DNA of 64,000 bases, from the IMG/VR virus record IMGVR_UViG_3300021963_000094, positions 1-64,000 of that record; one strand, written 5' to 3'. The notes beneath the pieces were generated by a model, which was given only the letters and a program-made list of their open reading frames with translations, was not told the DNA's origin and searched no databases. This stretch comes from a virus. This document shows positions 5,898-62,931 of this stretch, in pieces. The first letter of the stretch is position 1. The number at the start of each line of letters is the position of its first letter. The position numbers and the translations under genes are program-made.

Positions 5898-5907
5898 CTA
5901 TATATTC
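5898..5907 (-). promoter_or_regulatory. Putative late promoter (GAATATATAG)
   Basis: Copy of the recurrent RATATATA motif, 6 nt before the ATG at 5891. Confidence 0.55.
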
Positions 5908-5908
5908 C

Positions 5909-5935
5909 GAAATAAATTCTTTTAATTCTCTATAA
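5909..5935 (+). promoter_or_regulatory. Putative non-late promoter GAAA-N18-TATAA
   Basis: Same two boxes and spacing as the site upstream of gp32 (55127-55153). Confidence 0.35.
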
Positions 5936-5972
5936 TAAATTGGAATAAAGAAAATAAAGCCTTCATGGCCAC

Positions 5973-6602
5973 ATGTTTAAAAAGCTCAAGAAAATAATAC
6001 AAATTATGACAGATAAAGATCTTTCTGAAATCAAGGAAGAGTATTCCAATTTTTCGTATCAATGGATTAAAGGCGATAACCTCTCACAAACGCAACATTT
6101 TGAGGATTTAATTGAGGAGGGTGGCAGAAAATACATTCTTTTCACTGATAAAACCAGGATATCTTTAGATCTGCTAGACGAGTATATGATTAAGGTAGAA
6201 AAAGGATTTGAGGAGATAATTCCAAAATCCGATCCTAACGTCTTAAATCAATCACAGACCGAACAACCATCTGGCAGAGGGGTTAAGACAAGAGAGGTTC
6301 AAGAAATCAGACCACAGTCTAGAGACGAAAATCCAATATTTGCTCTACTCTCTAAACAGAAGGAAAACTGGGTAGATGTCGATTTAAAACTTAGCATCAA
6401 TCTTCCTCCTAGAAGCCTATGGGACGTTTTAATGGGATCTTTTGAAGATGCGGAGAAAGATATCTTAGAATACGTTACGAAAGACCTTGATATAGAGGTA
6501 GTTAGACAATCCCTGAGGGAATCCATAAAGGATATATATAAAAAGCAGAAAACAATTACATCCACAAAAAATGTCAGATCCCAAGATTCTATTCCAGAAT
6601 AA
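5973..6602 (+). CDS. Hypothetical protein
   Basis: 209-aa ORF with phage-like codon usage; no recognisable motif. Confidence 0.7.
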   Translation: MFKKLKKIIQIMTDKDLSEIKEEYSNFSYQWIKGDNLSQTQHFEDLIEEGGRKYILFTDKTRISLDLLDEYMIKVEKGFEEIIPKSDPNVLNQSQTEQPSGRGVKTREVQEIRPQSRDENPIFALLSKQKENWVDVDLKLSINLPPRSLWDVLMGSFEDAEKDILEYVTKDLDIEVVRQSLRESIKDIYKKQKTITSTKNVRSQDSIPE

Positions 6603-7089: not shown

Positions 7090-7095
7090 ATTTAT

Positions 7096-7377
7096 ATGAA
7101 TTTTCCTTCGAGAAGAGAAAGAAGAGCAATGGCAAAAGCAATGGGGCTAACAGGAAAGAAAGAATCCCTAGCTAAAATGTCAGAGCGATTTAAACGTTCC
7201 AATGAGTTTGGAAAAATGATCCATTTACAGCATTTACAAAATTTAGAAAATACTAGAATTAATTCAGAAAAAATTGAGGAAACAGAAGAAAACACGCCAC
7301 AGGCACCAACTGATTCGCCAGATTGGGGATTAGAAGACTTCAAACAACAAATCATAAGTGGAGAAAATCCAGAATAA
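7096..7377 (+). CDS. Hypothetical protein (SRRERR N-terminal motif)
   Basis: 93-aa ORF in the operon with a basic N-terminus. Confidence 0.6.
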   Translation: MNFPSRRERRAMAKAMGLTGKKESLAKMSERFKRSNEFGKMIHLQHLQNLENTRINSEKIEETEENTPQAPTDSPDWGLEDFKQQIISGENPE

Positions 7378-7696
7378 GAAAGCCTCAATAAAAATACATC
7401 TTACTTCTCTTAGTTATCGTGAAATTAAAAAATCACTGCCAGATAACGAGAAGGTGTCCTATATAGATGTAACCAAGATTATTTCCGAAAGCTTTGGGGA
7501 TAAAGATCTTAGTGATATCCAATATTGGATCCTAAATCAAATGATAGTTAAGAAAATAGAGTCTTTTAAGACCACTAATCCTGCAAAAATCTTTATAACT
7601 ATCAAGGAACCCTCCAGAAATTCAATTAAATCTTTTAAAGACCTCCTCCAAGAGTTTAAAATCGGACCCGCTCAAATAGAGATATACAGCATTTAA
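7358..7696 (+). CDS. Hypothetical protein
   Basis: 112-aa ORF with a GTG start overlapping the previous gene. Confidence 0.55.
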   Translation: MEKIQNKKASIKIHLTSLSYREIKKSLPDNEKVSYIDVTKIISESFGDKDLSDIQYWILNQMIVKKIESFKTTNPAKIFITIKEPSRNSIKSFKDLLQEFKIGPAQIEIYSI

Positions 7697-7718
7697 TTTA
7701 AGAGGTATCCCGTTTCGG

Positions 7719-7728
7719 GAATATATAA
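7719..7728 (+). promoter_or_regulatory. Putative late promoter (GAATATATAA)
   Basis: Recurrent motif at the head of the baseplate operon. Confidence 0.55.
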
Positions 7729-7749
7729 CTTAAATAATAATTGTAAGCT

Positions 7750-9615: not shown

Positions 9616-9625
9616 TATTTAGTAT

Positions 9626-10243
9626 ATGATTGATATAGACGTTTTAGCAAACAAACCGGAGATAATAGTTAACGGAGAGACTATTATAGATCTAGTTGCT
9701 AGATCCGTGGATCCTGATGTTGTTCCTGGATTTTCTAAATTTATTTTTACTAACGAAGAGATGGTAATGAGAGCAGATCTTGCAGCTCATATGCTTTGCG
9801 GAAGTCATAACAGAATGGGAACACTATTAAAAGTTAATTCCATAGGTAATCCTTTTTCTCTAAACGTGAATGAATTTTTATTTGTTCCTGACACAGAAAC
9901 AATTAATAAATTAAGCAGAAGACCCCAGGGAGAAGAGCCTGATGATATTAGAAAATCCTTTAGAAAACAATTACAAGATAGAATATCTAAGGTATCAGAA
10001 ACAAGAAAAGAGTATTTAAATGCTGTTAATATTAGTGAAGCTGCAGGTTCTGCAGGATCTGGAGAATTCCAAAATCCTCTTCCTCCTAATGTAACACAGG
10101 AGGGATCTGAACAATTCAAAGTACAAGACGGAAAATTAATATTTGGTTCTGATATTGGAGTATGTAGAACTAGAATACAGCAGAACAAATCACTAGCAAC
10201 AATTAAATCAAGATTTGCCCAAAGACAAATTTTTGAATCATGA
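9626..10243 (+). CDS. Baseplate wedge protein, gp53/LysM-like
   Basis: RADL.A..LCG....GTLLKVN.I.NPF.L...L.VP is the LysM-like signature of T4 gp53/P2 gpX proteins. Confidence 0.65.
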   Translation: MIDIDVLANKPEIIVNGETIIDLVARSVDPDVVPGFSKFIFTNEEMVMRADLAAHMLCGSHNRMGTLLKVNSIGNPFSLNVNEFLFVPDTETINKLSRRPQGEEPDDIRKSFRKQLQDRISKVSETRKEYLNAVNISEAAGSAGSGEFQNPLPPNVTQEGSEQFKVQDGKLIFGSDIGVCRTRIQQNKSLATIKSRFAQRQIFES

Positions 10244-11763
10244 TAGACAGCAAAAAAACAATTCTTCAGTTAGACAAAGAAACAATAGTTCTGGACGAGC
10301 TCTCTATTGTTGATGAGATAAATCACAAAGATAAAGAAAAAGTAGAAAGAATAGGAAGTAAAACCGAAACTGAAACTGGATTCGGAATGCCTATGATTAT
10401 GATTAATAACTTTCTTGTTAGAGATCTTAGTTTTTTCAGATTAGATCTATCGGATAAAATACCTCAATTAATATTTAGATTTACTCCACAGGATGAATCA
10501 TTTTTATATACATCGTATCCTAAAGATGGTGATCTAGTTTCGCTATACATTAGATCCACATCTGAGCTGTACAAGCCAGTTAGAATGGATCTATTAGTTA
10601 CCGAGGTGCTAAGTCAATTTGCCATGTTAGAAGAAAAATACATGGGTGAAGAAAATAGAGCTAATGGAAATAATGCATCATTTACTATAAAATGTCAAAT
10701 GAGAATTCCTGGTATATTTCAGCACACCTCTAAATCATTCAAAGATAAAACATCATTTGATGTTATAAGACAGGTAGCTAAAGATCTTGGACTTGGGTTT
10801 GCATCTAATGAGAAAAACACAGAGGACAAAATGAACTGGCTATGTCCTTCTAAAACCTTATACAAATTTATAGATGATGTCTGTGGATCTGCTTGGAAAG
10901 GGGAAGAAGACTTCTTTGATTGGTGGATTGATCAGTATTACGTTTTAAACTTTGTCAATCTTAAAAAACAGTTATTAGAAAAAAGTAAAGATGAAACAAG
11001 AGTACTTCAGGCTATAGGAACAGAAAATGGATTATCCGGAGGTTTAGACGGAAATGTTAAACCTGCTGAAGTTAAACTGCCTTTATTTTTTACCAATGAT
11101 TATTATTATAAAAAATATCCATTTTTTATCAACGCATATTCTGTTAAAAATGCATCCGGCTATATAGCAAATAATTTTGGTTATTCAAGGGATCTTCAAT
11201 TTTACGATACCAAGTTAGTAAGTGATAGACCTATTAATAAATTTGTGAAATATAAAGTGGAATATGTCACACAAAAAAATCTAGATTATAGCAGTATTCT
11301 CTTCAAAGGAAGAGCTAACGAGGATGTTTACAAAAAAGAAACTAAAAAAACCTGGGTTGGTACACAATATGGCGAAAATCAACACAAGAATATTCAACAG
11401 GCATTAGTTCAAAACAAATTAAACAAATACGAAAATTTTAAAGTCTATCTTGAAACACAGATGCATTCTTACGTTCCCTGGGTTTATCGAGGCCAAACAG
11501 TTCCGACCAGAATAGTACATGCTGAGGCAAAGCAGGCAAGGGTAAATTCACAGGAGGCTAATAAAAATCCTCCTATAGATAATGAACAACATGAGATCGG
11601 TAAAAAAGTAGACAATAAATTTCTGAGCGGGGTTTATATGATCATGGGATCCTATATTGAGTATATAGATGGTGCAATCAAGCAATCATTCCTGCTTGGA
11701 AAAAGAGAATGGTTAATTAATGATGGTAGAGGGTCAGATCCCGAGCCAGAAGTAAGTAAATAG
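10240..11763 (+). CDS. Baseplate hub protein (T4 gp27 / phage late control D-like)
   Basis: About 500 aa, located between the gp53-like and gp5-like genes; FLSGVYMI C-terminal strand and TSFDVI..VAK.LGL pattern. Confidence 0.55.
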   Translation: MIDSKKTILQLDKETIVLDELSIVDEINHKDKEKVERIGSKTETETGFGMPMIMINNFLVRDLSFFRLDLSDKIPQLIFRFTPQDESFLYTSYPKDGDLVSLYIRSTSELYKPVRMDLLVTEVLSQFAMLEEKYMGEENRANGNNASFTIKCQMRIPGIFQHTSKSFKDKTSFDVIRQVAKDLGLGFASNEKNTEDKMNWLCPSKTLYKFIDDVCGSAWKGEEDFFDWWIDQYYVLNFVNLKKQLLEKSKDETRVLQAIGTENGLSGGLDGNVKPAEVKLPLFFTNDYYYKKYPFFINAYSVKNASGYIANNFGYSRDLQFYDTKLVSDRPINKFVKYKVEYVTQKNLDYSSILFKGRANEDVYKKETKKTWVGTQYGENQHKNIQQALVQNKLNKYENFKVYLETQMHSYVPWVYRGQTVPTRIVHAEAKQARVNSQEANKNPPIDNEQHEIGKKVDNKFLSGVYMIMGSYIEYIDGAIKQSFLLGKREWLINDGRGSDPEPEVSK

Positions 11764-11765
11764 AG

Positions 11766-13949
11766 ATGGCAAATTTTTTAAATGAGATTAAAGACAACTT
11801 TAGAAGCGTAACTGACCCAAATCAGATACTGAATAAAGGTGTAGATAAGCAAAGAACTGCCTTTCTAAAGGGATTAAAATCAACTTCTTCCGGACAAAAA
11901 GAAGATCCAACCTATACTGGATTTAGAATCATGTTTGATTTTGGGTATGGTGGATTAGTTGATCCTTCAACATTTCTACCAGTTAGTCCTTTACTTTCAA
12001 AGGGAAAATTCAACGACGGAAAAACGATGAAGGATGACGGAGCTACTGATTTTTTCCATCTCTCCAGACAAAACATGAATATAGGGGAATTTCCAAATTA
12101 CACCGAGAATATTCATTATATGACCGCTGAAGGATTTCTAAGAGAAAGAAGAAGCGCTATGGAAAACGGGGAGTACGGTGGTAGCACTGATAACACTGGT
12201 AGAAAAATAGTTGGCGGAGATTCTGATAGATTCCAATCTGGGGTTTCTCATAGAGCTGCTGCGTTATCATCATTTAGAAATCTTCTTTCCAGTATAAACG
12301 AAAAGAGCCCTTGGTTTATTCAATCCATTGGAGGATTAGATAAAGTTTTAGGGGTAGATCAGCAAAGACAAATAGAGAGTTCTAAAGGAAGAGAACAAAG
12401 ATCTGGAGTTTTAACTTTTGAATGTATGGATTCTATAGATCTTAGAATCAATGCAATGGCGGAGCTTTACAGAAAGGCGACATATGATTATCAATATCAT
12501 AGACAGCTATTACCTGACAACCTTCGTAAGTTCAGAATGTATATCATTGTTACTGAGATTAGACAAATAGATCTTCAGAAAAATCTTGCTGATGTATTAA
12601 ATCCATTTAATCTTCCTGGTGTTAGAAACGCTGTTGATTCTATTAGGGATATAGCTCAATCTGCTGGTATATTGAGAACAGCTTCTCCTGAGTCCACTAA
12701 TGCAAAAGCGGATTTGGAATCGTTTGTTAAATCGTTCGAAAGAATGGAACCTTATATTCTAATTTATCAATTAGATTTATGTGAATTTAATTTTGACCAA
12801 TCATATCCCTTTACAACTTTAAATAACTCTGTTGGACCAGGAGCTCCTCCAGTAAAAAACACATTTAAGGTTCACGTTGGTTCAGTTAAAGAGTACAAAC
12901 TACAATACAATATCCTTTCTGATTTAATTAGAAATGAGTCCACTTTTTCTCCTATATTGATACAGGATAGCTGGAACTTAGCTGGATCCCATATGTTACA
13001 ACCAGGCTCGGGAATCAATAACAATCTGAATGTATTTAAAAAATTAGCAAGTAATTTCATAACAAATTCGGTTGCTTCTGTTGTTCAACAACAGGTATCC
13101 CCTATTGTTACCAAACAGCTCCTTGGCAACGCTTATGGATTTAGATTGAGCGATGCTGTTAGATCTCTGAATTCTGTTCAGGATTTAGTTACTGGTATTA
13201 AAGAGATGAAGGATCCTTTCGGTGACTATAAACCACAATCCAGAGGATTGGGCGGACCTGCTGAAAGACAATATCCTATAGTCAGTCAAGATGTTTATCC
13301 GGATAATAATCCAAACAATGCAATAGGATCTGGACAGGGAAACGTTTTTCCCAGACCCGGAGTACCTGGATCTTTAGGCCCTGATGACATCTATGCGGAT
13401 AGCCCAGGAAAAGATCTAGGATTACCTGATAGAATCTATGGTAAAATAAAAGATGACGAGTACAGAAGAGTAGGTGGGGATATTGATAGCACGGATCTTG
13501 GTGTACCTAATAGAGTATATCCAACAATAAAGGACGATATCTATAAAGGTGTACCCGGGGAAGATCTTGGATTACCTAAAAGAATTTATACCACTTTGAA
13601 GGATGACGAGTACTCTCAGATCCCAGGAAAAGATCTTGGTGTTCCTGATAGAAAATATGCATCTATGAAAGAAGATGTTTATAAGAACGAAGAAATCAAA
13701 TACGGATCAATAAAAGAAAGATCTTATAGCGAGGATTCTAGTATTCCCGAAGAATTAAAATCTGATGTTTATCCAAATTCTGAGATAGAATACTCACCTA
13801 TTAAAGAGACCTTATATACTAGCGATCAAACCGATCCAAAGAATACCTCAGGAGAAGATGTGTATGCTAATAGTCCAGGAAAAGATTTAGGCCTACCTAA
13901 AAGATCATATCCTACGATCAAAGATAACGCTTATAAACAGGGATCTTAA
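11766..13949 (+). CDS. Probable tail-tube-related baseplate protein (gp54-like) with C-terminal ~23-aa repeats
   Basis: PWFIQSIGGL, LTFECMDSIDLR and LPDNLRKF.MYI.V.E.R suggest a tube-like core; repeated PGKDLGLPxRxY units; synteny. Confidence 0.4.
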   Translation: MANFLNEIKDNFRSVTDPNQILNKGVDKQRTAFLKGLKSTSSGQKEDPTYTGFRIMFDFGYGGLVDPSTFLPVSPLLSKGKFNDGKTMKDDGATDFFHLSRQNMNIGEFPNYTENIHYMTAEGFLRERRSAMENGEYGGSTDNTGRKIVGGDSDRFQSGVSHRAAALSSFRNLLSSINEKSPWFIQSIGGLDKVLGVDQQRQIESSKGREQRSGVLTFECMDSIDLRINAMAELYRKATYDYQYHRQLLPDNLRKFRMYIIVTEIRQIDLQKNLADVLNPFNLPGVRNAVDSIRDIAQSAGILRTASPESTNAKADLESFVKSFERMEPYILIYQLDLCEFNFDQSYPFTTLNNSVGPGAPPVKNTFKVHVGSVKEYKLQYNILSDLIRNESTFSPILIQDSWNLAGSHMLQPGSGINNNLNVFKKLASNFITNSVASVVQQQVSPIVTKQLLGNAYGFRLSDAVRSLNSVQDLVTGIKEMKDPFGDYKPQSRGLGGPAERQYPIVSQDVYPDNNPNNAIGSGQGNVFPRPGVPGSLGPDDIYADSPGKDLGLPDRIYGKIKDDEYRRVGGDIDSTDLGVPNRVYPTIKDDIYKGVPGEDLGLPKRIYTTLKDDEYSQIPGKDLGVPDRKYASMKEDVYKNEEIKYGSIKERSYSEDSSIPEELKSDVYPNSEIEYSPIKETLYTSDQTDPKNTSGEDVYANSPGKDLGLPKRSYPTIKDNAYKQGS
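13384..13935 (+). repeat. Intragenic peptide repeats DxYxxxPGKDLG(L/V)PxRxYxxxK
   Basis: At least five clear copies plus degenerate ones are visible in the translation. Confidence 0.8.
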
Positions 13950-13982
13950 AAACAAGGATAGATAAGAGAAAATCCTGTTTGT

Positions 13983-14762
13983 ATGTCTTTACAAAATTTA
14001 CAAGAATCTAATATAGAAAGGACGCAACACTTCTTAGGTGTTGTTGTTGACAACAAGGACCCAGAGTTCAGAGCTAGATGCAGGGTTAGGGTTTTTGGTG
14101 TTTTTGATGATGTTAAAGACGAGGATCTTCCTTGGGCATTTCAAAGGTTCGATATATCTTTTGGTGATAACGGCGGATCCGGTAGGGTTAGTATACCTAA
14201 GCTAGGTTGTATAGTTCATGTTCAATTCAATAACGGAAATTATTACACTCCAGAATACAAAGCAGTACAGGAACTTTCAAAGGATCTAATAACAGAATTA
14301 AGCGCTTCTTACGAAGGTGCTCATTCACTAATATACGATGGTATAGAGAAACTTAAAATATATTACACCGTTGCTAAAGGATTGGTTATAGATTTAAAAG
14401 AATCTACTGTTGTAATATCCAATGATAATTCCATAACAATAACACACGCAGGTCAAACATCAACCCTAGAATTCAGGGGTGGAAAGATAACAGAATTTGC
14501 TAATTCTGAAATTGAAAGCACAGCAACAACTAGAATTAAACAAAGCAGTAACGAAGTTTGGGTAGACGGTAAAACCACTAAGCTTGGACATGCTCCTGTA
14601 TACTCAGCTATTCTTGCTGAACCATTATGGATGTTTCTGAAACAACTTGCAGCAGCAGTTGATGCTAAACTTCCATCTACACCAGGAGCAATGACAAGTT
14701 TAGCTGAAAGCTATGAACAACTATCAACCTCAGATGTAGTTAAAGTAACAAAGTCTAATTAA
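13983..14762 (+). CDS. Baseplate central spike, T4 gp5/VgrG-like (OB fold + beta-helix, no lysozyme domain)
   Basis: GVVVDNKDP..RCRVRVFG...LPWA...P..G..V.V.F OB-fold signature. Confidence 0.85.
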   Translation: MSLQNLQESNIERTQHFLGVVVDNKDPEFRARCRVRVFGVFDDVKDEDLPWAFQRFDISFGDNGGSGRVSIPKLGCIVHVQFNNGNYYTPEYKAVQELSKDLITELSASYEGAHSLIYDGIEKLKIYYTVAKGLVIDLKESTVVISNDNSITITHAGQTSTLEFRGGKITEFANSEIESTATTRIKQSSNEVWVDGKTTKLGHAPVYSAILAEPLWMFLKQLAAAVDAKLPSTPGAMTSLAESYEQLSTSDVVKVTKSN

Positions 14763-14767
14763 GATAA

Positions 14768-17700
14768 ATGGATTTTAATTTCAATAAACTTCAGGACATA
14801 AGTGATAGAATATCCAGCGGTGAATTAAAACCAGAGGATGTTCTTAACGAGTTTAGTGGATTTACTGACGATCTTCCTAGTGACGAAGAGATAATCAATA
14901 ATGCCCAGGAGTTAGAAAAATCAATAGAGCCGGTTCCTTTAATTTTAACCGACGATGAAATTAACGACCTTATCTGTTCTTATGATGGAGAGGAACTAGC
15001 TAATAGAACTTTTTGGGAGATATTAAGAAAACAAAATTATTTAGACAGAATATCAGAATTGCCGGACTTTTCTAGGAATAGAAATTTCGATAAATTCATG
15101 GATGATAATAATCTTTCCAACGAACTTAACGGTGCTAAAGAAATGATTTCTGACAATTTAGATTTAGATCTTCTTGGAATAAAATTTTCAGGATCTAACA
15201 GAAAAATCAGAAGATTTAAAATAGGTCCATTTGGATTTGACATTCATATTATAACACATAAAGGAGTTCCTCTATTTTTTCACGTTGCACCCAAAAAGAT
15301 GTCTTTAAGTTTTATAAGGGATCAGCTGAAGAAAAAAAGTAAAAAAGGAAAAGCTAAGAAATGCTCCGATGATATCTACAATAAATTTGGATCTGGTTCA
15401 GGACCATCAACTTCTGACAACAATGACTTTGGTGATGGTACCGGATCAGAAGCTGGATCTGATTCGGGTTTTGGATCGAACAATATAGATCCGGAAAAAT
15501 TATCATCCCTCCTAGATAATATTTTAGACAGAGAAGCTTCGGAAAAAGATTCTAATAATGCATTTGATGTTTCGGATATAGTAGATCAGGTTTTTTGTGA
15601 ACCAGATTTTCCCATTAACCCCGAAACGGGAGAACCGCTTTTCACAAAAGAGGATCTTAAATCTTTCATAGAGGAGATTTGCTTACCGGAGGAAGAATCT
15701 GCAATACCCGAGGTTTTACCTGAGGGTGATATAGATGATGTAACAGAAAAGGTAAATAAATGTCTAAGTCAAGCAAAGGAAATATTTAAAGATGTAAGGG
15801 AAAATAACGAACTTAGATCTAGATATGAAAAAGCAGAAAAAGATTTAGAAGAAATCCTATATCATTATAAGATAGTTAAAAACTACTACAATGGGCTTTC
15901 TAAATCATTTGAGGCCAAAGCAAAATCTGGAAAGAAAGGAAATCCTTTAACTCTACTTTTAACTTTAGTCTTAGCTTCATCCGATGCAAATAAATTTTTA
16001 GATGCTGTAAAGAATTTTTCTGCTAGGTTTAAAGAAACCAAAAAACAAACATCACCCGGTAAAAAAGGATATGTTGGTATTAAATTTGATATAGCATTTC
16101 CTCATGGCCTTGGTGGGGATCTCCCTTACGAAACTGTTAAACCAGAAGCAACCTCCGATTTACTTTCATCAGACTATGAGAGAGTAGATTTAACTAAGCT
16201 TCAACTTGGGATGGAATTCTCAAGTAAAGGAATTCTTGGATCGGGCAATTCTGATTTTCTTAAATCTTATGAAGATTTTATAATATTCAGAGACGAGAAT
16301 CCAAAACTTGATGTGCCTTTCTACAATTTCATTCAGGACATAGAAGGATCCAACAAACCAAAGGAAGCTATTATAAAAGATATAGAGAAAAATCATGGAT
16401 TTCTTTATTCTAATCTTTTAGAGATTTCTGCAAACCCGTGGCTATTCTTTACTGCAGACGAAAGAGGGGATAATGATGCTAGAAAATCAGCGGACATAAA
16501 ACCACAGAGCACAAATAGTGACGGAGAACCAAATCAATCATTTAGCGACTTCTGGGGTAATTTTAAAAAATCTTTTGATACTAAATACAATGCAAGAAAG
16601 AAGATAGTAGAGGATAAAATAAATTCGATCAAAGTTCTTTCTGATAAATTCGTAGACACCCTTGCTGATTACTATTTCACTGTTAATCTAAGTTCTACCT
16701 CTAATAATAGTAAGCTACTAAAGGATGCATCGGACAAAGCGGATAAGAACGTTAGCTATATCGAGGATCTTTTACTTTCAATAGCTCAGAAGATACAGGA
16801 ACTAGATCAGAAAAACTCCCCGGAGGTTTTACAATCTAGAGCCGAGTCTATAGATTGTTTTGGCTCTGCCAATGATGGTAGCGAAAACAGTGGAGGATCT
16901 TCTTCTACTGGTATTGGGGTTTCTATTGGACTTGATGCAAACGGAAACCCGAACAATTCTACTCCTGACACACTAAAGGCTGCTTGCCCTCCGGATTGTT
17001 GCGGTGCTTCTGGTCAGGCATTTTCGGGTGGGGGTATAATAGACGGATTAAACTCTCCAGACTGTCCTAATTTATTCACAACATGTTATTGGAAAGAATT
17101 TGCTAAAAAAGCCACGACAGTTGGAATCCTCCCAATTCCTAATGGATTACCACCAATTGAAAATCCTGCTGGATTTCTACCGAACATCGGTTTAAAATAT
17201 TGGCCGGTCGGATATCTTCCGCCATCTTTTATTCCTTTACCCCCGCCATTGGTTAATCCCCTTGACGGAACTCCTTTCATAAGAATTCCTATGCCTATGA
17301 TATGGACTATTATACCTCCAATAGTTATACCATTGCCTATAGGGGTTATAGTTATATTCATACCGTTCATAGGTGGATTTATGCCTAGTCCGTTAGTTTT
17401 CTTCCATGATTTTTTAACCGGAAATTCAATATTTCTTTTGGGTATTAGAGGATTTAGATTTATACCTAGAAAATCAGATCCTGTTATACCAGATCCATTA
17501 GTTAGATTAAAGCAATTTTTATCCCTAGGAGTACCTAACTATCTTTTTCCTTTCCCAAATCTTGGTAAGGACAACGTCGACGATCCTAAGAGAATAAAAA
17601 AAGACATTTTAGCAAATCTTAAAAAAAGATTATCAAATGCTAAAGTTAATATCGATTTTTCCAAGATTCAAAAAGTACAGGATGATTTGGCTAAAAAGAA

Positions 17701-19309
17701 AGCAGATCTAGAAAATCAGGTGCTTGATTTGAAAAGAAAGTCTCCACTTGATGGTTCAGATCCTAAACAAAAGATGAAAGAATTAAAGGAGCTTTCTGCA
17801 TCTTTTGATGCTCAGAAGATAGAAGCTGTTAGATCCGTGATGAAAGATTATTTAAAAAACTCTATCACGGTTCCTGATATACAATTCCCTAAGCAGTCTA
17901 AAAATCTGATTGCTGAAATACCATCTCCTATAAAGATTATAAGAGACACTAACGCCAAGATAAAAATAGGTGCAATTCCACAAATTCCGTCTGCTGGTAA
18001 AAAAGTTAATTTAAAATCCAGAATATTAGACTCTGTAAAAAATATAGAATTCAAGGCAGCATCTAAATATGCAGATCTTAACAAAGATTTACCTAAAGGC
18101 TCAAGAATAGTTGCGGTATTTAATTCACCAATAAATGAGTTAGGTAAAAGCCAGGAGGATGTTGAATCTTTAAAGGGATTGATATCTGATGGGATAGGAC
18201 AGATATTCAGTGGAGATAAATCTCCTCTAAGTAACAAATCTCTTCTAACCTTCAAACCTAAACTAAAAAAGATTCCAAGAATTCCGGGAGCAGGTCTTCC
18301 CGCACCAGGAGCTATAATAGCAACGCCTAATCCTATAGTTAATTCTGTTAAAGGATTTATTAATAAAAATCTGAATGTCAATGTTCAGGATTTAGTAAAG
18401 CTTGCAGATCGAACTTCTATCGGAGGTAACAAAGTTTTAAGGGAAAAAGATTTGCAATTAATGATTAGGAATTCTCTAGATAAAACTTTAAGCAAATTCC
18501 CAGTTGATCTAAAGAATGTTAATTTCCAAAATATTGCTAGTGCAGGTGATGTTGCTCAAGAATATTCTAAGTTTTGTTCTTCTTTAGAACTTCCTCCATT
18601 TCCTCCAAAGAAGAGTGGCAATCCTGCTGTTCCCCTGGGACCTGGCGGAATACCACCGATAATAATTCCAGGCTCTGTTGTTTCAAACTTTATAGTGAAG
18701 GGAGCTTCATCAGCGATAGATTCCGTGGATGTTTCTAAAATTATTCCTGGCGGATTATCTGCATTTGATAATTTAGCTGCAGATGACATCAAAGTTATGA
18801 CAAACAATATTGCGGTTTCTTTTTTTAACAAAGCAAGCATACCAGCTATTGATAATTTGCCATCAATTCCTTTAGAAGCAAGACCCCAAGATTACATAGA
18901 GCTTGTTATGAGCTTTTTACCGGTTCATCCTTATGCTGATATAGCATTCACGTTATTGTGGACCAAATTTAAAAACCCGCCGAGGATTCCGATCCCTCCT
19001 GAAATAATAGAACCTCTGTTAGCACTACAAAAAGCTATAGTGTATAAACTACCTTGGCCTATCGTAGTATTACTTGGAAGAAATGTTATTAACATTTTAA
19101 ATCCCCTTTATACAAGAGAAGATATTCCTAGATGGGATAGAATGTCTTTGAAAAATCCATTTTTTGTTGTTTTTCTGGACGAATTTATCAGATCAGCTGC
19201 GGATATATCTGGAGGATTCAAATTCTTTATAGGCGCGGGAAAATTATTTTATCCCCTCCCAACTCTTGAAATTAATTTGGGATTTGGTACTAAAATCAAC
19301 ATAAACTAA
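14768..19309 (+). CDS. Large (1513 aa) probable virion protein with coiled coils, Cys cluster and Pro-rich hydrophobic segments
   Basis: Directly after gp5-like; CPPDCCG...CP...C cluster and IPLPPP...IPPIVIPLPIGVIVIFIP stretch. Confidence 0.55.
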   Translation: MDFNFNKLQDISDRISSGELKPEDVLNEFSGFTDDLPSDEEIINNAQELEKSIEPVPLILTDDEINDLICSYDGEELANRTFWEILRKQNYLDRISELPDFSRNRNFDKFMDDNNLSNELNGAKEMISDNLDLDLLGIKFSGSNRKIRRFKIGPFGFDIHIITHKGVPLFFHVAPKKMSLSFIRDQLKKKSKKGKAKKCSDDIYNKFGSGSGPSTSDNNDFGDGTGSEAGSDSGFGSNNIDPEKLSSLLDNILDREASEKDSNNAFDVSDIVDQVFCEPDFPINPETGEPLFTKEDLKSFIEEICLPEEESAIPEVLPEGDIDDVTEKVNKCLSQAKEIFKDVRENNELRSRYEKAEKDLEEILYHYKIVKNYYNGLSKSFEAKAKSGKKGNPLTLLLTLVLASSDANKFLDAVKNFSARFKETKKQTSPGKKGYVGIKFDIAFPHGLGGDLPYETVKPEATSDLLSSDYERVDLTKLQLGMEFSSKGILGSGNSDFLKSYEDFIIFRDENPKLDVPFYNFIQDIEGSNKPKEAIIKDIEKNHGFLYSNLLEISANPWLFFTADERGDNDARKSADIKPQSTNSDGEPNQSFSDFWGNFKKSFDTKYNARKKIVEDKINSIKVLSDKFVDTLADYYFTVNLSSTSNNSKLLKDASDKADKNVSYIEDLLLSIAQKIQELDQKNSPEVLQSRAESIDCFGSANDGSENSGGSSSTGIGVSIGLDANGNPNNSTPDTLKAACPPDCCGASGQAFSGGGIIDGLNSPDCPNLFTTCYWKEFAKKATTVGILPIPNGLPPIENPAGFLPNIGLKYWPVGYLPPSFIPLPPPLVNPLDGTPFIRIPMPMIWTIIPPIVIPLPIGVIVIFIPFIGGFMPSPLVFFHDFLTGNSIFLLGIRGFRFIPRKSDPVIPDPLVRLKQFLSLGVPNYLFPFPNLGKDNVDDPKRIKKDILANLKKRLSNAKVNIDFSKIQKVQDDLAKKKADLENQVLDLKRKSPLDGSDPKQKMKELKELSASFDAQKIEAVRSVMKDYLKNSITVPDIQFPKQSKNLIAEIPSPIKIIRDTNAKIKIGAIPQIPSAGKKVNLKSRILDSVKNIEFKAASKYADLNKDLPKGSRIVAVFNSPINELGKSQEDVESLKGLISDGIGQIFSGDKSPLSNKSLLTFKPKLKKIPRIPGAGLPAPGAIIATPNPIVNSVKGFINKNLNVNVQDLVKLADRTSIGGNKVLREKDLQLMIRNSLDKTLSKFPVDLKNVNFQNIASAGDVAQEYSKFCSSLELPPFPPKKSGNPAVPLGPGGIPPIIIPGSVVSNFIVKGASSAIDSVDVSKIIPGGLSAFDNLAADDIKVMTNNIAVSFFNKASIPAIDNLPSIPLEARPQDYIELVMSFLPVHPYADIAFTLLWTKFKNPPRIPIPPEIIEPLLALQKAIVYKLPWPIVVLLGRNVINILNPLYTREDIPRWDRMSLKNPFFVVFLDEFIRSAADISGGFKFFIGAGKLFYPLPTLEINLGFGTKININ

Positions 19310-19331
19310 AATCATTTAAAAACAAACAAAA

Positions 19332-20456
19332 ATGGCTAAGAAAAGACAATACACAAGAGACGAGTATTCTCCGGAAGAAAGGGCTATTATGGACGAACTT
19401 TACGAAGGTCACTTTAGAGTAAATTTCGCAGATAACCCTGCCCAATCATATTCTAAGGAGCTAGAAGAAAATCAAGTTCTAAGTGTAAAAATCACACAGA
19501 TCAGAGGAACCAGTGCAATAGGTGAAACGTCTGTTGGACAATCTGTTGCGATAGATTTAATGAAAGAAGAAAAAGCAATCAAGAGATTAGGATTCCCTGC
19601 ACTTAATGTACAGGAAGGATCTCAGCTTGATGTTGTAATATTCAAAGATAAATCTGGAATGTATAATGGATCTTTAGCAGCAGGCTATGAGAATTCATTA
19701 AAGACCGAATTATTAAATTCGATCAAGGAAGAGAAAACAGCATACACGGTGAGAATCGATTCAACATGTCCTGGAGGATTTATGGTGAACCTTTCTGGTA
19801 TCAAGTGTTTCTTACCTGGTTCATTAGCAGCAGCTAATAGAATTATAGATTTCCAATCATTTGTTGGAAAAACAATCAATATAATGATTGAGACTTACGA
19901 TGAAAGAAGAGACATTTTTGTTGTTTCCTTCAAAAAGTATCTTAAGCATGTTATTGATGCTAAAGTGGAAGAATTATCTCTCACACAAAAATACACAGGT
20001 ACAGTTACAGGTATGTCAACTGCAGGTGTATTCGTTGAATGGGATGAGTATTACACTGGTTTAATCCCAGCAGAGGAATTTGATAATGCCGGAATTAAAA
20101 TGGATCTAAACGCAGGAGGAAGCGTGTCATTCTATGTTTCTGACTTCAGAAATCCAAACAGAATAGTATTAAGATTAAACCCACCTGAAGGAAAAGATAG
20201 GGACTTACAGGAACTTAAAGACATTTCTTTATTGGAAGATAAAGAAAATAAAATATATAGAGGGACAGTGTCAAAGGTGAAAAACTTCGGGGTTTTTGTA
20301 AAACTTGAAAATAACATCGTTGGCCTTGTTGAAAAGGACTATTTGGCTGGAAATCCAAAAGATTATGAAGTAGGATCTGAAATATCCTGCACTATCATGG
20401 ACGTAGAGCTACAGAGTTCAAAACTCTATTTAAAGGAAAAAATTGAAAATACTTGA
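19332..20456 (+). CDS. rpsA: Ribosomal protein S1 (bS1) homologue with four S1/OB domains
   Basis: GGFMVNLSGIKCFLPGS, GTVTG...GVFVE..GLI and GTV..VKNFGVFVKL...GLV S1 repeats; N-terminal YSPEER..M.ELY helix. Confidence 0.8.
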   Translation: MAKKRQYTRDEYSPEERAIMDELYEGHFRVNFADNPAQSYSKELEENQVLSVKITQIRGTSAIGETSVGQSVAIDLMKEEKAIKRLGFPALNVQEGSQLDVVIFKDKSGMYNGSLAAGYENSLKTELLNSIKEEKTAYTVRIDSTCPGGFMVNLSGIKCFLPGSLAAANRIIDFQSFVGKTINIMIETYDERRDIFVVSFKKYLKHVIDAKVEELSLTQKYTGTVTGMSTAGVFVEWDEYYTGLIPAEEFDNAGIKMDLNAGGSVSFYVSDFRNPNRIVLRLNPPEGKDRDLQELKDISLLEDKENKIYRGTVSKVKNFGVFVKLENNIVGLVEKDYLAGNPKDYEVGSEISCTIMDVELQSSKLYLKEKIENT

Positions 20457-21903
20457 TCAAAATTTTTATTACGCAGCTAAAATCGGATTCGAATTCGAAT
20501 TCATGTCTTCTTTCTCTAGGAAGGAGATAGCCGAGAAAATTGGGGAAGATTTAGGGAAACAGGTAAAAGTCTTTAGAAAATACCACTCTAAATTTTCCCC
20601 AACTCGTGATATTTTTAAGCTGGAGCCTGATTTTTCTGGGGGTCTTAAGATGGTTGAGCTGATAACCGGACCCATGGATTACTTCGAGGCAATCCCCGTT
20701 TTAATTAGAATTTTAAAATGGATAGACGAAAACGGATATACTAACGAAAGATGTGCACTCCAATTTGGTCTAAGCTTTGATAGAGTAAAATATCCTTCGT
20801 TAATAGATTTTAGCCAACTAAATCCCCTGAAATTTGTTTTGGGATTTGATGAAGAATTCATCTGGAAGAAATTTCCGGAGAGAAGAGGATCTTTATATGC
20901 GAAGTCAATCAAAAGAATATCCCCTTCTAATAGATTTGTAAGAGGACATAAAGACATTCTAGGAGACAGAAACTCATATACTGTTTACACAGAAAAAAAT
21001 ATGGGTGTTAATCTAACCAAGTTACAGGACGGGTATATGGAGGTTAGGTATATGGGTGGAACGGATTATCAGAAAAAGTACACAGACATCAAAGAAATTA
21101 TAGATTATCTGATATCTCATACTTTTAATTGTCTTTTGCATAACGATACTCTTACACAAAAAGAAACATCGACCCTTAGTGAATTGATATCTAAGGTTTA
21201 TAAAGAAACTGAAAGTTTTATAGATCCTGAGTCTTTCATGAGAAACTATCCAGATCTACACGTTACTGTCGATTTAAGAGAGGATTTACAGATAATTAAA
21301 ACTTATTTTAATGAGGTTAAAAATTTCCTATACAGTTTAATTGTAGATAATGGAATCACAGAAGGATTCTTAAACTACGACACGCAAATTGCTAAGTACC
21401 AATTAAAGGATGGTAAAACAAAAACAGCTAACATGCTAAAAGATCTAGATCTGATAGAATGTGAAATTGAAGGAAACGTAGCAAGATGTAGAATATTTGG
21501 CTGTAAGTTAGAAAACTGCCAGATAGAAGATTCCCAGTTAGTCATGAACAATGACGTAACGGATTCTAAAATCCTTGACTGCGATCTTAGTTTTAGCAAC
21601 AACATTTCAAATTCGTATATAGATTCAAAGGATAGAGAAATCAGCTGCGAGGTTACTGGCGGTGTTATTAGGTCTGGTTATATAACAAAACTGGCTGAGA
21701 TATCATCTTCAACTGAAATTATCAGTAATGGTGCAGATCCTAAAGGTAAAGACAAAGGAAAAGGAAAGGGTGGAAAAATGATTAAATCCACAATTTTCCC
21801 AGATAGAAACTACGAGGATATCGTAAAACCAGAGCCTTTCGAGGATCTAAATAATCGAAGACCATCTTTTTCCGTAAACCAGCTGTATAAAAATAATAAT
21901 TAA
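20443..21903 (+). CDS. Putative amidoligase (COOH-NH2 ligase fold) with C-terminal beta-helix
   Basis: IGFEFEF, ELIT and EVRY motifs; C-terminal repetitive (I/L)xxC/S beta-solenoid; TTG start. Confidence 0.6.
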   Translation: MKILDQNFYYAAKIGFEFEFMSSFSRKEIAEKIGEDLGKQVKVFRKYHSKFSPTRDIFKLEPDFSGGLKMVELITGPMDYFEAIPVLIRILKWIDENGYTNERCALQFGLSFDRVKYPSLIDFSQLNPLKFVLGFDEEFIWKKFPERRGSLYAKSIKRISPSNRFVRGHKDILGDRNSYTVYTEKNMGVNLTKLQDGYMEVRYMGGTDYQKKYTDIKEIIDYLISHTFNCLLHNDTLTQKETSTLSELISKVYKETESFIDPESFMRNYPDLHVTVDLREDLQIIKTYFNEVKNFLYSLIVDNGITEGFLNYDTQIAKYQLKDGKTKTANMLKDLDLIECEIEGNVARCRIFGCKLENCQIEDSQLVMNNDVTDSKILDCDLSFSNNISNSYIDSKDREISCEVTGGVIRSGYITKLAEISSSTEIISNGADPKGKDKGKGKGGKMIKSTIFPDRNYEDIVKPEPFEDLNNRRPSFSVNQLYKNNN

Positions 21904-21905
21904 GA

Positions 21906-22676
21906 ATGACTACATCAGAAGAGGCACTAATACAAGAGGTAAAGGACGACATATCTCATTCTTGCGCATTACCATATGCACTGAACGATCAGGAGATAAA
22001 AAGGATCATAAAAAGAGCGAAGGCATATTTTTATGATAACTATCAATATGCGGTAGAGGATAAAATAATGGTGTTACCTTCACAATTATTCAGTACCCAA
22101 CAATTCAGAGCGACCAGACAAATCCAATTACCAGACTGCGTTATAGGTGTTTGGGACGTGAGAGAAGTAGGAGGAGCTGGTATAGTTGGAACCCCGGATA
22201 AGGATTTTGGAGATGCTAAGCTATTAGGTTCGGAGCTTATGCTTAGCCCTTTTATAGGTGATAACCTTGTTTATAGAACAGTTTTATACTCATTTTTCGA
22301 TCTTGCAAAAGCTTTTTTATTGGAGACTTTTGCATTCAATTACAACAAAAACACTAAAAGATTAACTATAAATGGTAGAGATCCTAGTAGAGCAACTTCT
22401 TCTGGAATGACCATGGGAGGTAAAGATGTCGGGGTTAGAGCTTTTATTGCAATACCTGACGAGAATCTTTATTCCGACGAGCTTTTTGTTAGATATGTGC
22501 TTGCTGAAGCAAAAATTAACATAGGCAGACTTTTAGGCACATTTGGCTATCAATTGCCAGGAGGCGTAACCATAAATGCTGCAGCTATTCAAGGAATTGG
22601 ACAAGCAGAGAAAACCGAGGTTATGGAGATGATTAAAAGTGAAAATACGCCAAGTTACTTCCTACAGTGGAATTAA
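21906..22676 (+). CDS. Neck protein, T4 gp13-like
   Basis: C-terminal LG.F..QLPGGVTIN...I...G..E signature of gp13-type head-tail adaptors. Confidence 0.7.
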   Translation: MTTSEEALIQEVKDDISHSCALPYALNDQEIKRIIKRAKAYFYDNYQYAVEDKIMVLPSQLFSTQQFRATRQIQLPDCVIGVWDVREVGGAGIVGTPDKDFGDAKLLGSELMLSPFIGDNLVYRTVLYSFFDLAKAFLLETFAFNYNKNTKRLTINGRDPSRATSSGMTMGGKDVGVRAFIAIPDENLYSDELFVRYVLAEAKINIGRLLGTFGYQLPGGVTINAAAIQGIGQAEKTEVMEMIKSENTPSYFLQWN

Positions 22677-22708
22677 TCCCAATAATTATCTTCTGCTTAT
22701 ATTTTCTA

Positions 22709-22717
22709 AATATATAA
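22709..22717 (+). promoter_or_regulatory. Putative late promoter (AATATATAA)
   Basis: Recurrent motif, 7 nt before the ATG of the gp25-like gene. Confidence 0.5.
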
Positions 22718-22724
22718 GGGAGAT

Positions 22725-23096
22725 ATGATCAAAATTTCGGACATATACCCAAGAAATCCAGACGACCCGCTTTACGAGGCGGATAAGCTTGAGACTGATG
22801 ATGTTGTTGAATCTACCGTAGGTATGATAAAACAGATCATGCTAACCAAGCCGGGGACTGTTTTGGGCGATCCGTATTTTGGCATCGATCTGGAATCAAT
22901 GATATTTGATTTTGAGGTGTCCCAAAGTGAATTGGAAGAAGCTATATCGTTACAGCTTTATACGTATTGTACTTTTGCTAGGGGCATTCTTAATATCGAT
23001 TTTCAATTGGGATTCTTTGAAGGCGAAACAAGAGATACGTGTGTGATAGAGTTCGCAATCAAAGGTAATCCAGTTCTAGGAATAAAGGTAATTTAA
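22725..23096 (+). CDS. Baseplate wedge/sheath initiator, T4 gp25-like
   Basis: LTKPG...DPYFG..L...IF signature. Confidence 0.8.
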   Translation: MIKISDIYPRNPDDPLYEADKLETDDVVESTVGMIKQIMLTKPGTVLGDPYFGIDLESMIFDFEVSQSELEEAISLQLYTYCTFARGILNIDFQLGFFEGETRDTCVIEFAIKGNPVLGIKVI

Positions 23097-23098
23097 AA

Positions 23099-24823
23099 AT
23101 GGATTTATTTAAAAAAAATCGTGCCAAGATACAAGACCTGCTCCAGGACACTCTTGAGCTAATACAAAAAAGATATAATCAAGCAAATCAGCTATTTACT
23201 GTTGCTTCTGCCTGGGGACAGATATTGTTCGTTCTACAGAACCTATCTCAACTTATTTTATTCTTTATCGAAGACTCCATAACGGAGCTTGATATCAATA
23301 AGGCGAGCAGAGAAAGCTCTGTTTATGGATTAGCAGCTCTAACTGGACACAACGCTTCCAGAAGTAGCTGTGCAAGAGGGCAGGTAGATATCACATGGAA
23401 TGGACAGGATTCTACCAGTGTAGGTGGAAGTGCAATATTAATTCCTAAATATTCTTCAATTAAATTTCAAAACGGAGGTATAAACTATCTTTTAAACCTA
23501 CCACAGGACTATGCAAGATTAAACCTAACGCCTTCTACCAAAATCTCTTGTGAAATAATCGAGGGAAGTATTAGAGCTTCAACTTTTACCGGGAGTGGAA
23601 CAATATTACAAAGCTACAATGTTTCCGATAGGGTAACATCCACCGTAGACAACTTCGAGGTTAAGGTCTTCGTCGACAGCGAAGAATGGAAAATATACGA
23701 TTCACTTTACGATATACCTTTTAATTATAACGGATGCCTGGTTAAAACCGGTATCAATAATGGTATTGATGTTATTTTCGGGAACACCAACTTTGGAAAA
23801 ATACCACCCCTTGGGTCTACCATCCAGGTTCAATATGTTGAAACTATAGGGGTTTCTGGAAATATCAATTCGATAGATCCAGGTAAGATATCATTTGAAT
23901 TTGATGATGATGGAACAGATGCTTTTGGTAATCCTGTTTCTTTAAGTGATTATTTAAAAATAACCTGTGTTACTGCTCCACAACTTGGAACAGACAAAGA
24001 ATCTATTCAGCTTACAAGAATATTAGCACCTAAAACATCAAGATCTTTTGTTTTAGCAAATGCTGAAACGTATACCACATATTTTGAAAAATTTGGTACA
24101 TTCTCTATTATAGAGGCATTCTCAACATTTGATGATCAATATCTCGATGATGATAATATTATTTATGTTTTACTAGTTCCTGATATCAGACAAAAATTAA
24201 AAACGAATGAAACGTATTTCGATATAAAGGAAACTGAGTTTACCTTAACCGATTATCAAAAACAAAGACTTTTAAAAGTAATAGACGAGAGCGGGCAAAA
24301 GATTGTAACAACTGAGGTAAAAATATTAGATCCTAAAATATCTAGATATGTTATAAACGTTCTGATTAGCATATTCGAAGGATATGACCCAAGTACAGTT
24401 AAGGGACAAATAGTCGATTCCATAAGCTCTTATTTTATAGGAATAAGAAGAAGAGACAAGATACCAAGATCTGATCTAATCGCTATTCTAGAATCTATCC
24501 CAGGGGTAGATTCTGTTACATTATTCTTCGTAAGTGAGAAAAATGAAAAATATGCTAGAAGCGTAGAAAATCTTGCAGACACAGATCCTAAGAAAAATCT
24601 AGTTCTTGGATTAGACGAGTTTGGTGATATCGTTTTTGGTAAAGATGAAATAGCAATTATAACAGGTGGATGGGGAGACAGAACTGGACTTTACTACGAC
24701 CAAGGTGCTGATTATAACAAACTTTCATCTATCAACATAGATATTAGAGCAACTGTTCCGGTAACATATAACACCGAGATTAATATGAAGAACAAGACGT
24801 TCCTAAAAAATAACAATCAATAA
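23099..24823 (+). CDS. Baseplate wedge protein, T4 gp6 / baseplate J-like
   Basis: A.RESSV..LA...G, FGN..FGKIPP.G..I.V.Y...G..GN and ES...R..AP motifs; follows gp25. Confidence 0.8.
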   Translation: MDLFKKNRAKIQDLLQDTLELIQKRYNQANQLFTVASAWGQILFVLQNLSQLILFFIEDSITELDINKASRESSVYGLAALTGHNASRSSCARGQVDITWNGQDSTSVGGSAILIPKYSSIKFQNGGINYLLNLPQDYARLNLTPSTKISCEIIEGSIRASTFTGSGTILQSYNVSDRVTSTVDNFEVKVFVDSEEWKIYDSLYDIPFNYNGCLVKTGINNGIDVIFGNTNFGKIPPLGSTIQVQYVETIGVSGNINSIDPGKISFEFDDDGTDAFGNPVSLSDYLKITCVTAPQLGTDKESIQLTRILAPKTSRSFVLANAETYTTYFEKFGTFSIIEAFSTFDDQYLDDDNIIYVLLVPDIRQKLKTNETYFDIKETEFTLTDYQKQRLLKVIDESGQKIVTTEVKILDPKISRYVINVLISIFEGYDPSTVKGQIVDSISSYFIGIRRRDKIPRSDLIAILESIPGVDSVTLFFVSEKNEKYARSVENLADTDPKKNLVLGLDEFGDIVFGKDEIAIITGGWGDRTGLYYDQGADYNKLSSINIDIRATVPVTYNTEINMKNKTFLKNNNQ

Positions 24824-25077
24824 TGTTTAACACAGAAAGAAAGAGTTATTACGAGTATATTGAATCAACAGAGGATAAAAGAACCAACGTTGGTTTTGAA
24901 TATGAAGGAAGAATATTCGAAAAGACCCTTTCTTCTATAACTTTGGGTGGAGATAACAACAGAAAAAGTATATTAAGCTCAATAGAAAGAGTTGTTTTTA
25001 GGTTAATTGAGACAACAAAAAACATTAGAAATTTTGTTAACTACAGAGTTCCTAAAAATAATAAGTATGTTCGATAA
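24823..25077 (+). CDS. Small baseplate-associated protein
   Basis: 84 aa, TAATG-coupled on both sides between gp6-like and the giant baseplate gene. Confidence 0.6.
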   Translation: MFNTERKSYYEYIESTEDKRTNVGFEYEGRIFEKTLSSITLGGDNNRKSILSSIERVVFRLIETTKNIRNFVNYRVPKNNKYVR

Positions 25078-46290: not shown

Positions 46291-46301
46291 GATATATATA
46301 A
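46291..46301 (+). promoter_or_regulatory. Putative late promoter (GATATATATAA)
   Basis: Recurrent motif, 16 nt before ATG 46318. Confidence 0.55.
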
Positions 46302-51447: not shown

Positions 51448-51456
51448 GATATATAA
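51448..51456 (+). promoter_or_regulatory. Putative late promoter (GATATATAA)
   Basis: Recurrent motif, only 5 nt before ATG 51462. Confidence 0.55.
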
Positions 51457-59452: not shown

Positions 59453-59461
59453 GATATATAA
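59453..59461 (+). promoter_or_regulatory. Putative late promoter (GATATATAA)
   Basis: Recurrent motif, 11 nt before ATG 59473. Confidence 0.55.
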
Positions 59462-62921: not shown

Positions 62922-62931
62922 GAATATATAA
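62922..62931 (+). promoter_or_regulatory. Putative late promoter (GAATATATAA)
   Basis: Recurrent motif just downstream of the terminator, 16 nt before ATG 62948. Confidence 0.55.

Follow-up and report, generated by a model that had tools for sequence, protein, structure and literature searches.

Ribosomal proteins encoded by phages are among the clearest hints that large phages reprogramme translation. Huge phages with a possible ribosomal protein S1 (rpS1) rarely have Shine-Dalgarno (SD) sites, and a role in translation initiation has been proposed for the protein, while it could not be said whether such genes are true rpS1 (Al-Shayeb et al., 2020; PMC7162821). In Bacteroidetes lake phages, a gene for another ribosomal protein, bS21, lies within the block of structural genes and is expressed late (Chen et al., 2022; PMC9723584). 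We consider here an S1 homologue (bS1) encoded at positions 19332–20456 of a 64,000-nt sequence from an uncultured lake jumbo phage (IMG/VR record IMGVR_UViG_3300021963_000094, positions 1 to 64,000; hereafter the window), where it lies among baseplate and neck genes.

For cellular bS1, the first three domains (D1–D3) of the E. coli protein are enough for all S1 activities, so that they bind the 30S subunit and mRNA and melt RNA (PMC3858243). Bacteroidota ribosomes ignore the SD sequence; adenines at −12 and −13 promote initiation in Flavobacterium johnsoniae, and domain 4 of bS1 lies near mRNA positions −12 to −15 (PMC6847099, PMC9976891). Against this background we think it somewhat probable that the window encodes a phage bS1, made late in infection, which works on the host 30S subunit and serves the SD-less, A-rich initiation regions of a Bacteroidota host. 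As envisaged, S1 would have been cut down to an anchor helix followed by D1, D2 and a pair of S1 domains of RNA-binding type, and would be transcribed together with the baseplate and neck genes and so accumulate late. Like cellular bS1, it would dock at uS2 of the host 30S subunit, adding to or replacing the host protein, and once docked may help ribosomes to load phage initiation regions that are A-rich and SD-free. A set of near-leaderless late genes in the same genome would be a separate feature, arising from T4-type late promoters that abut start codons and not needing S1.

The phage S1 protein and its resemblance to cellular bS1

The open reading frame (ORF) is intact on the + strand and codes for 374 aa (P0001). 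The product matches the Pfam S1 family (E 7.5e-16), and its top solved relative by sequence is E. coli bS1 (E 6e-17); in the sequence alignment, the phage string GGFMVNLSGIKCFLPGS falls on the D2 hallmark GGFTVELNGIRAFLPGS of the E. coli protein. All of its top ten NCBIfam matches are rpsA models, but with 39–87 bits against cut-offs of 368–918 bits they score far too low for an orthodox RpsA, which marks the protein as an S1 derivative. The evidence thus supports a true bS1 derivative over a generic S1-domain protein. A PDB sequence search with residues 1–136 alone gave no match, and PHROGs has no family for the protein, the sole match being a weak one to a nuclease S1-domain family.

An AlphaFold2 model built on 48 family members (mean predicted local distance difference test, pLDDT, 81.9) has a helix at residues 14–32 followed by four oligonucleotide-binding (OB) domains at 48–114, 138–199, 220–281 and 309–368. 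Its top Foldseek match is ribosome-bound E. coli bS1 (8e-24). With VIA-align, residues 29–205 of the model superpose on residues 3–174 of ribosome-bound bS1 (Z 13.6, root-mean-square deviation 4.8, 169 aligned), and residues 27–374 on residues 1–352 of E. coli bS1, which are D1–D4. The modelled protein is hence collinear with D1–D4 of bS1, with D5 and D6 absent, so that it does not have the six domains of the cellular type. An N-terminal helix with four OB domains is what the original prediction had read from the sequence, and both the model and the structural alignment agree. The gene and its parts are as follows.

19332..20456, + strand: phage bS1 homologue, 374 aa (P0001; homology, AlphaFold2 model, family alignment)
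19371..19427, + strand: codons of the N-terminal helix (residues 14–32), with conserved aromatics Y12 and Y24 (model, family alignment, complex prediction)
19473..19673, + strand: OB1, residues 48–114, D1-like, with invariant E65, G69 and Q70 (model, alignment)
19743..19928, + strand: OB2, residues 138–199, D2-like (sequence alignment to bS1, family alignment)
19989..20174, + strand: OB3, residues 220–281, a canonical S1 domain of RNA-binding type (Pfam, model, alignment)
20256..20435, + strand: OB4, residues 309–368, a canonical S1 domain, with the best Pfam stretch at 303–363 (Pfam, model)

The N-terminal half carries the features expected of a ribosome-bound S1, with the anchor helix first, then a degenerate D1, then a D2 that carries GGF...FLPGS, in the same order as in bS1. 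OB2 is the best-conserved part of the protein, its motif GGFMV..SGI.CFLPGS being invariant in the 48 aligned family members (46–95% identity), and D2 together with the helix that follows it forms the most invariant region of the family. F150 and F160 are likewise invariant, and by eye the motif places them at the positions of E. coli F120 and F130, to which they would correspond in the OB2 pocket of bS1 (the pocket is described in PMC10123108). At the N-terminus, the phage motif Y-S-P-E-E-R-x-x-M-D-E-L-Y resembles Y-T-S-E-Q-R-x-x-M-D-E-E-Y, which stands just ahead of D1 in the bS1 of a Saprospirales metagenome-assembled genome (MAG). A profile of the phage N-terminus has its best match, a weak one of 5.3 bits, in the pre-D1 helix of this same Saprospirales bS1. 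That cellular protein scores 780 bits on NF004953, the Bacteroidota six-domain rpsA model and its best NCBIfam fit, with six S1 matches in one frame; the alignment of NF004953 with the phage protein begins at residue 10.

Docking was considered by complex prediction, using residues 1–135 of phage S1 and the uS2 of F. johnsoniae (Swiss-Prot) as a stand-in host protein; a uS2 gene was not detectable in the Saprospirales MAG. The complex scored 0.69 against 0.00 for the best control, on a measure whose mark is reached by 58 of 80 solved complexes and by 2 of 110 mismatched pairs. Three runs had at least 90% of contacts in common, and the pLDDT of the partner was at least 76. The predicted contacts on uS2 (29–46 and 204–210) match the E. 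coli sites of Phe32 stacking and of Asp205/Arg208 beside the zinc pocket (PMC4288201). The predicted interface on the phage side comprises residues 6–9 and 20–43 and includes the invariant Y24, K42, E65, G69 and Q70. As the S1–uS2 complex has already been solved and the uS2 used was a stand-in, the prediction speaks for likeness to bS1 rather than for binding. The docking through the N-terminus that had been proposed from the sequence therefore holds as a predicted, bS1-like placement on uS2, and not as an association with the ribosome.

The same features bear on an alternative in which phage S1 acts off the ribosome, as a chaperone or protector of late mRNAs or as a cofactor of a phage RNase, polymerase or recombinase, with D1–D2 binding a phage partner instead of uS2. 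Extraribosomal uses of S1 by phages have precedents in T4 RegB, Qbeta replicase and lambda beta (summarised in PMC13157829). Qbeta replicase binds S1 through D1–D2, where the phage family is most invariant (D2 and the following helix), and its chains 4q7j and 4r71 are among the fold matches of the model. The scores far under the rpsA cut-offs and the overlap of the S1 stop with the start of a conserved, amidoligase-like gene of 486 aa would also suit such a role. We nonetheless regard it as unlikely, since the N-terminal anchor and the D1 residues of the predicted uS2 interface are conserved (Y24, K42, E65, G69 and Q70 are invariant), the model superposes on D1–D2 of ribosome-bound bS1, and no candidate phage partner was identified.

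Gene order and expression of the S1 gene

The window is part of a single contig of 74,466 bp that has no terminal repeat and is therefore a fragment. No near match to the window was found in the phage collection. Its closest long relative (G002, the record of locus L003) is 244,850 bp in length and estimated to be 86% complete, and the window maps on positions 184.5–244.8 kb of it at ~80–86% nucleotide identity. A protein search recovered more than 334 homologues of the phage S1, with identities of 46–95% and on contigs of up to 453 kb; nearly all are 366–375 aa in length and some are 395–415 aa. The genes on either side of S1 are listed below.

13983..14762, + strand: baseplate hub with a gp5-like OB domain (phrog_430, phrog_37871)
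14768..19309, + strand: 1513-aa protein immediately 5' of S1, no family match (family searches)
19310..19331, + strand: 22-nt A-rich, SD-free spacer ahead of the S1 ATG, late box absent
20443..21903, + strand: 486-aa protein read from a TTG, with a 14-nt overlap between this start and the S1 stop (Amidoligase_2, sub-threshold)
21906..22676, + strand: neck/head-tail adaptor protein (phrog_211), matching the annotated neck protein of phage PTm1
22725..23096, + strand: 123-aa protein of the virion module, a near-leaderless candidate
23099..24823, + strand: baseplate wedge subunit (phrog_219, E 4e-24)

In 36 IMG/VR loci the order is constant, running from the hub through a large variable protein, S1, the 486-aa protein, the neck protein and the 123-aa protein to the wedge. 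The large protein has no match in three loci of 60% S1 identity (L020, L021 and L023). The hub-to-neck order is also found in a contig binned with the Saprospirales MAG (L024), whose S1 is 36% identical, and in the published 462-kb huge phage LR756500, whose S1 is 28% identical. S1 is conserved about as well as the structural genes that surround it. The placing of S1 among baseplate and neck genes is thus an old trait of the lineage, and the virion-module setting described in the original prediction is upheld by the PHROG matches and by an order kept down to 28% S1 identity.

That S1 keeps its place between hub and neck across the lineage, to that same level of identity, could also be taken to mean that it is packaged in the virion and delivered with the DNA, so that its action on host ribosomes would begin in the first minutes of an infection. 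This we hold to be extremely unlikely. The protein has no homology to structural proteins and no sequence feature that indicates packaging, its bS1 fold is complete without extra domains, and the gene position fits plain late co-expression equally well, as was argued for phage bS21 (PMC9723584).

The 486-aa product downstream matches Amidoligase_2 at residues 13–80 with E 0.0018 and 18.7 bits, which is below the cut-off of 22. The TTG start of its gene is conserved across all close relatives, while in the clades of 46–60% S1 identity the two genes stand apart, with gaps from ~17 nt to ~540 nt.

The S1 gene has no late box of its own and follows the 1513-aa gene after the 22-nt A-rich spacer. 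Given the lack of own boxes and the A-rich, SD-free spacers, S1 and most virion genes would depend on internal initiation, the kind that bS1 is thought to serve in Bacteroidota. Scans of positions 5000–24900 for sigma-70 promoters and terminators gave fewer sites than shuffled sequences, and did not set an operon boundary. A perfect late box, ATATATAG, inside S1 (20253–20260) was considered as a promoter for the next gene and rejected; it spells the codons for K-I-Y-R where OB4 begins, half of the diverse relatives lack it at the nucleotide level, and it is probably a coding coincidence.

Further parts of the lineage's tool kit for translation and late transcription lie beyond the 74-kb contig. 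In G002 they include a 64-aa bS21, a transfer-messenger RNA, a cluster of 13 tRNAs and a late sigma factor resembling gp55 (L045:1486–1680; L062:42–15637; L057). The end of the contig itself (71.8–74.5 kb, past the window) falls inside a collagen-like Gly-X-Y repeat, and at 48000–50000 of the window the GC content is raised to 0.455, with a run of GGC/GGA (Gly) codons just before the gene start at 48593.

Start sites, late promoters and the choice between readings

SD signals are depleted throughout. Among the 61 starts of the 74-kb contig none has GGAG or GAGG at −20 to −4, and AGGA, GGAG or GAGG precedes 3 of them, against a background of 17%. In G002, SD-like motifs occur at 12 of 278 starts (background 14%). 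The initial observation that most starts lack a properly spaced SD is therefore correct for both genomes. At positions −15 to −7, G makes up 0–8% and A 46–70%, with peaks of A at −11 to −13; over 90% of the phage genes, S1 included, start on A-rich internal sites. The combination of SD absence and A-rich leaders is the Bacteroidota pattern. Other hints as to the host are that the structural relatives are Lak (Prevotella) and Tenacibaculum phages, that one relative lies in the Saprospirales bin and that G002 carries a bS21 gene. The host is thus probably a member of the Bacteroidota.

A second signal is the octamer ATATATA(A/G), which occurs 12 times on the + strand and once on the − strand of the 74-kb contig; 11 of the 13 lie 5–29 nt 5' of a start on the same strand. 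Only position and orientation carry the signal, since boxes are no more numerous than chance predicts (9 in the window, 14 expected). Position is clearly enriched, with 16 of 22 ATATATA copies falling in the 1.7% of sequence that lies at most 40 nt upstream of starts. In G002, 45 of 69 boxes are within 40 nt of a start, compared with 6.6% for control AT-only 8-mers. The box is AT-rich, lacks a −35 element and stands in the sense orientation upstream of virion genes, and a late sigma factor of the gp55 family is encoded by two relatives, G002 and G004 (phrog_234, E 4e-16 and 1e-17). From its sequence and setting, ATATATA(A/G) is best read as a T4-type late promoter. Its copies in the window include the following.

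13958..13965, + strand: late box with one mismatch, ATAGATAA, 17 nt ahead of the hub gene; the first promoter-like site met upstream from S1
22710..22717, + strand: late box ATATATAA, 7 nt before ATG 22725
51449..51456, + strand: late box ATATATAA, 5 nt before ATG 51462 (817-aa protein)
5898..5905, − strand: late box ATATATAG, 6 nt before ATG 5891 (187-aa DUF5824 protein)
46294..46301, + strand: late box, 16 nt before ATG 46318
59454..59461, + strand: late box, 11 nt before ATG 59473
62924..62931, + strand: late box, 16 nt before ATG 62948
7721..7728, + strand: late box, 21 nt before GTG 7750
6534..6541, + strand: late box, 29 nt before ATG 6571

The gaps of 5–7 nt claimed at the outset for the ATGs at 51462, 5891 (minus strand) and 22725 are accurate, at 5, 6 and 7 nt respectively, and the remaining gaps are of 11–29 nt. 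Gap length, unlike the spacer sequence, is conserved. The gap is 5–9 nt before the 123-aa gene in 35 related loci, and 3–6 nt before the 817-aa gene in five relatives with 39–91% protein identity; in two relatives the 187-aa gene has gaps of 5 and 8 nt. In G002 the gaps peak at 3–5 nt (12 of 45 promoter-proximal genes), with a second hump at 13–22 nt and none at 0–2 nt, and all 16 genes with a gap of 8 nt or less start with ATG. The box of T4 late promoters lies at −13 to −6. If this geometry is applied to the short gaps, late transcripts would start 0–5 nt before the AUG, which suggests a class of late genes with leaders of ~0–5 nt. The share of very short gaps is unusable as a statistic on its own, since gaps of 3–8 nt make up 36% of box-proximal (up to 40 nt) starts against 32% for other AT-only 8-mers.

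The string TATAAGGGAGAT follows the box before 22725 and also directly precedes a second box upstream of 46318 (window 46282–46301); a shorter version, TATAAGGGAT, stands before 51462. The purine-rich GGGAG after the box is unlikely to be an SD, as it is not conserved in more distant orthologues. The near-leaderless gene of the minus strand (5328–5891) adjoins sugar-modification genes at the window's left end; its product is a DUF5824 protein (Pfam E 2e-16) with a further match to a PHROG that carries the annotation cytidyltransferase.

Short promoter gaps and S1 had been joined in the original prediction as one coupled takeover: phage S1, by way of its N-terminus, would take the place of host bS1, and ribosomes would in consequence prefer leaderless or ultra-short-leader late mRNAs. 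We consider this very unlikely. Several points speak for it: late boxes stand 3–9 nt before the ATG of three genes with spacing conserved in orthologues, the peak of gaps and the ATG starts in G002 agree with it, and relatives encode a gp55-like late sigma for which T4 geometry would put the transcription start on the ATG or beside it. A placement on uS2 is also predicted, and E. coli ribosomes free of S1 favour leaderless mRNAs (PMC4288201, PMC3858243). Phage S1 is not a bare anchor, however, but keeps D1–D4, more than the minimal fully active S1 (PMC3858243), and ribosomes that carry it would therefore be unlike S1-depleted ones. Extra S1 strips leaderless mRNAs from E. coli ribosomes (PMC3858243), so that, with all S1 activities retained by D1–D3, the expected effect is opposite to the proposed bias. 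The displacement of host S1 in favour of short-leader messages is thus not supported.

The coupling itself fares no better. Near-leaderless candidates are few (3 of 61 genes in the contig, ~16 of 278 in G002), while for S1 and the majority of virion genes ribosomes have to start internally, on A-rich spacers, and gaps of 3–8 nt are, as above, no commoner than for other AT-only 8-mers. The Saprospirales-binned contig keeps S1 but has a gap of 18 nt at the 123-aa gene, and LR756500 keeps S1 without an abutting box in the module examined. The absence of SD sites is the normal state of Bacteroidota hosts and was already linked to phage rpS1 (Al-Shayeb et al., 2020; PMC7162821). The abutting late promoters appear to belong, independently of S1, to the T4-type system of late transcription.

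Several observations also weigh against the reading that we prefer, a late-made bS1 working on host ribosomes. The protein does not reach any curated rpsA cut-off, the best score being 86.8 bits against 577 for TIGR00717, and scores 64.9 against 720 bits on NF004953; with only ~25% identity to a Bacteroidota bS1, its function may have drifted. Read by eye, the family alignment suggests that in both OB3 and OB4 another residue stands in place of the His in the usual S1 motif, G-[LF]-[VIL]-H. The pass in complex prediction may reflect memory of solved S1–uS2 structures and used a stand-in uS2. Phage PTm1, for which the homologue search gave no S1 match, is equally SD-free (3 of 56 starts in the 50 kb examined), so that S1 is not required for this style of initiation. 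Finally, S1 expression may not be purely late, as a conserved element precedes the gene, ~20–70 nt upstream of the S1 ATG, in the clades of 46–60% identity (L020–L036; e.g. L030:9930–9975): GGAAATTT-N16-TAnAAT in the 46–51% clade and GAAATTT-N16-TATAAY in the 60% clade. In the clade of the window the counterpart, tGGGATTT-N16-TAAACT (~19279–19307), overlaps the end of the upstream ORF. The element may serve as a promoter for S1 alone or as a regulatory leader; it is not a genome-wide promoter class, as GGAAATTT-N16-TAnnnT gives 1–6 matches per genome against 0–4 for a control pattern.

PTm1 was also tried as an S1-less control for the coupling of S1 to promoter spacing, and was rejected because its upstream motifs differ and the phage is too remote.

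Comparison with known systems

Compared with bacterial bS1 (RpsA, of the six-domain Bacteroidota type NF004953), the phage protein has the same succession of anchor helix, degenerate D1, D2 with GGF...FLPGS and then canonical S1 domains. It differs in having four domains rather than six, in its ~25% identity and scores of 65–87 bits against 577–720, and in the position of its gene within a virion operon.

The late promoters share with those of T4 (TATAAATA, read by gp55) a short AT-only box without a −35 element before virion genes, and a gp55-family sigma is present in relatives. They are unlike those of T4 in their consensus, (R)ATATATA(R), and in that the box abuts the start codon in about a third of cases.

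A closer parallel is phage bS21, which like S1 is a loosely bound 30S initiation protein encoded among the virion genes of large freshwater phages, and which is expressed late; its entry into host ribosomes, to the advantage of phage messages, has been proposed (Chen et al., 2022; PMC9723584). It is a different ribosomal protein, and G002 carries both genes, ~180 kb apart. In E. coli, bS1 and bS21 touch each other on the mRNA-exit side of the 30S platform. We think it distinctly unlikely, but worth stating, that phage bS1 and the bS21 of its relative together rebuild, late in infection, the mRNA-exit side of the Bacteroidota 30S platform and favour A-rich internal and ultra-short-leader starts over host mRNAs; if true, this would be a two-protein, phage-specified ribosome, with a D1–D4 S1 and an invariant OB2 pocket. 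More generally, the S1 family is large, tightly conserved and syntenic, keeps the parts used for docking and mRNA binding, and occurs with late promoters that often abut the start codon. It therefore offers a good system in which to ask how SD-blind Bacteroidota ribosomes choose between messages, and whether a virus can shift that choice.

The nearest relatives are the possible rpS1 proteins of huge phages such as LR756500 and the Lak Prevotella phages. The protein of the window resembles them (25–38% identity) as a multi-S1-domain protein of very large genomes in which SD sites are rare, and the LR756500 gene lies in the same hub-to-neck order. The preferred reading is the idea published for those phages by Al-Shayeb et al. 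(2020), to which no new mechanism is added. What is new here is the resolution of the protein into a helix and D1–D4, the anchor of Bacteroidota type, a docking prediction with controls, synteny down to 28% identity and the conserved short gaps between promoter and ATG. In contrast to the previously described genes, the S1 of the window belongs to a distinct and tightly conserved subfamily of lake phages, mostly 366–375 aa in length and with a predicted uS2 interface.

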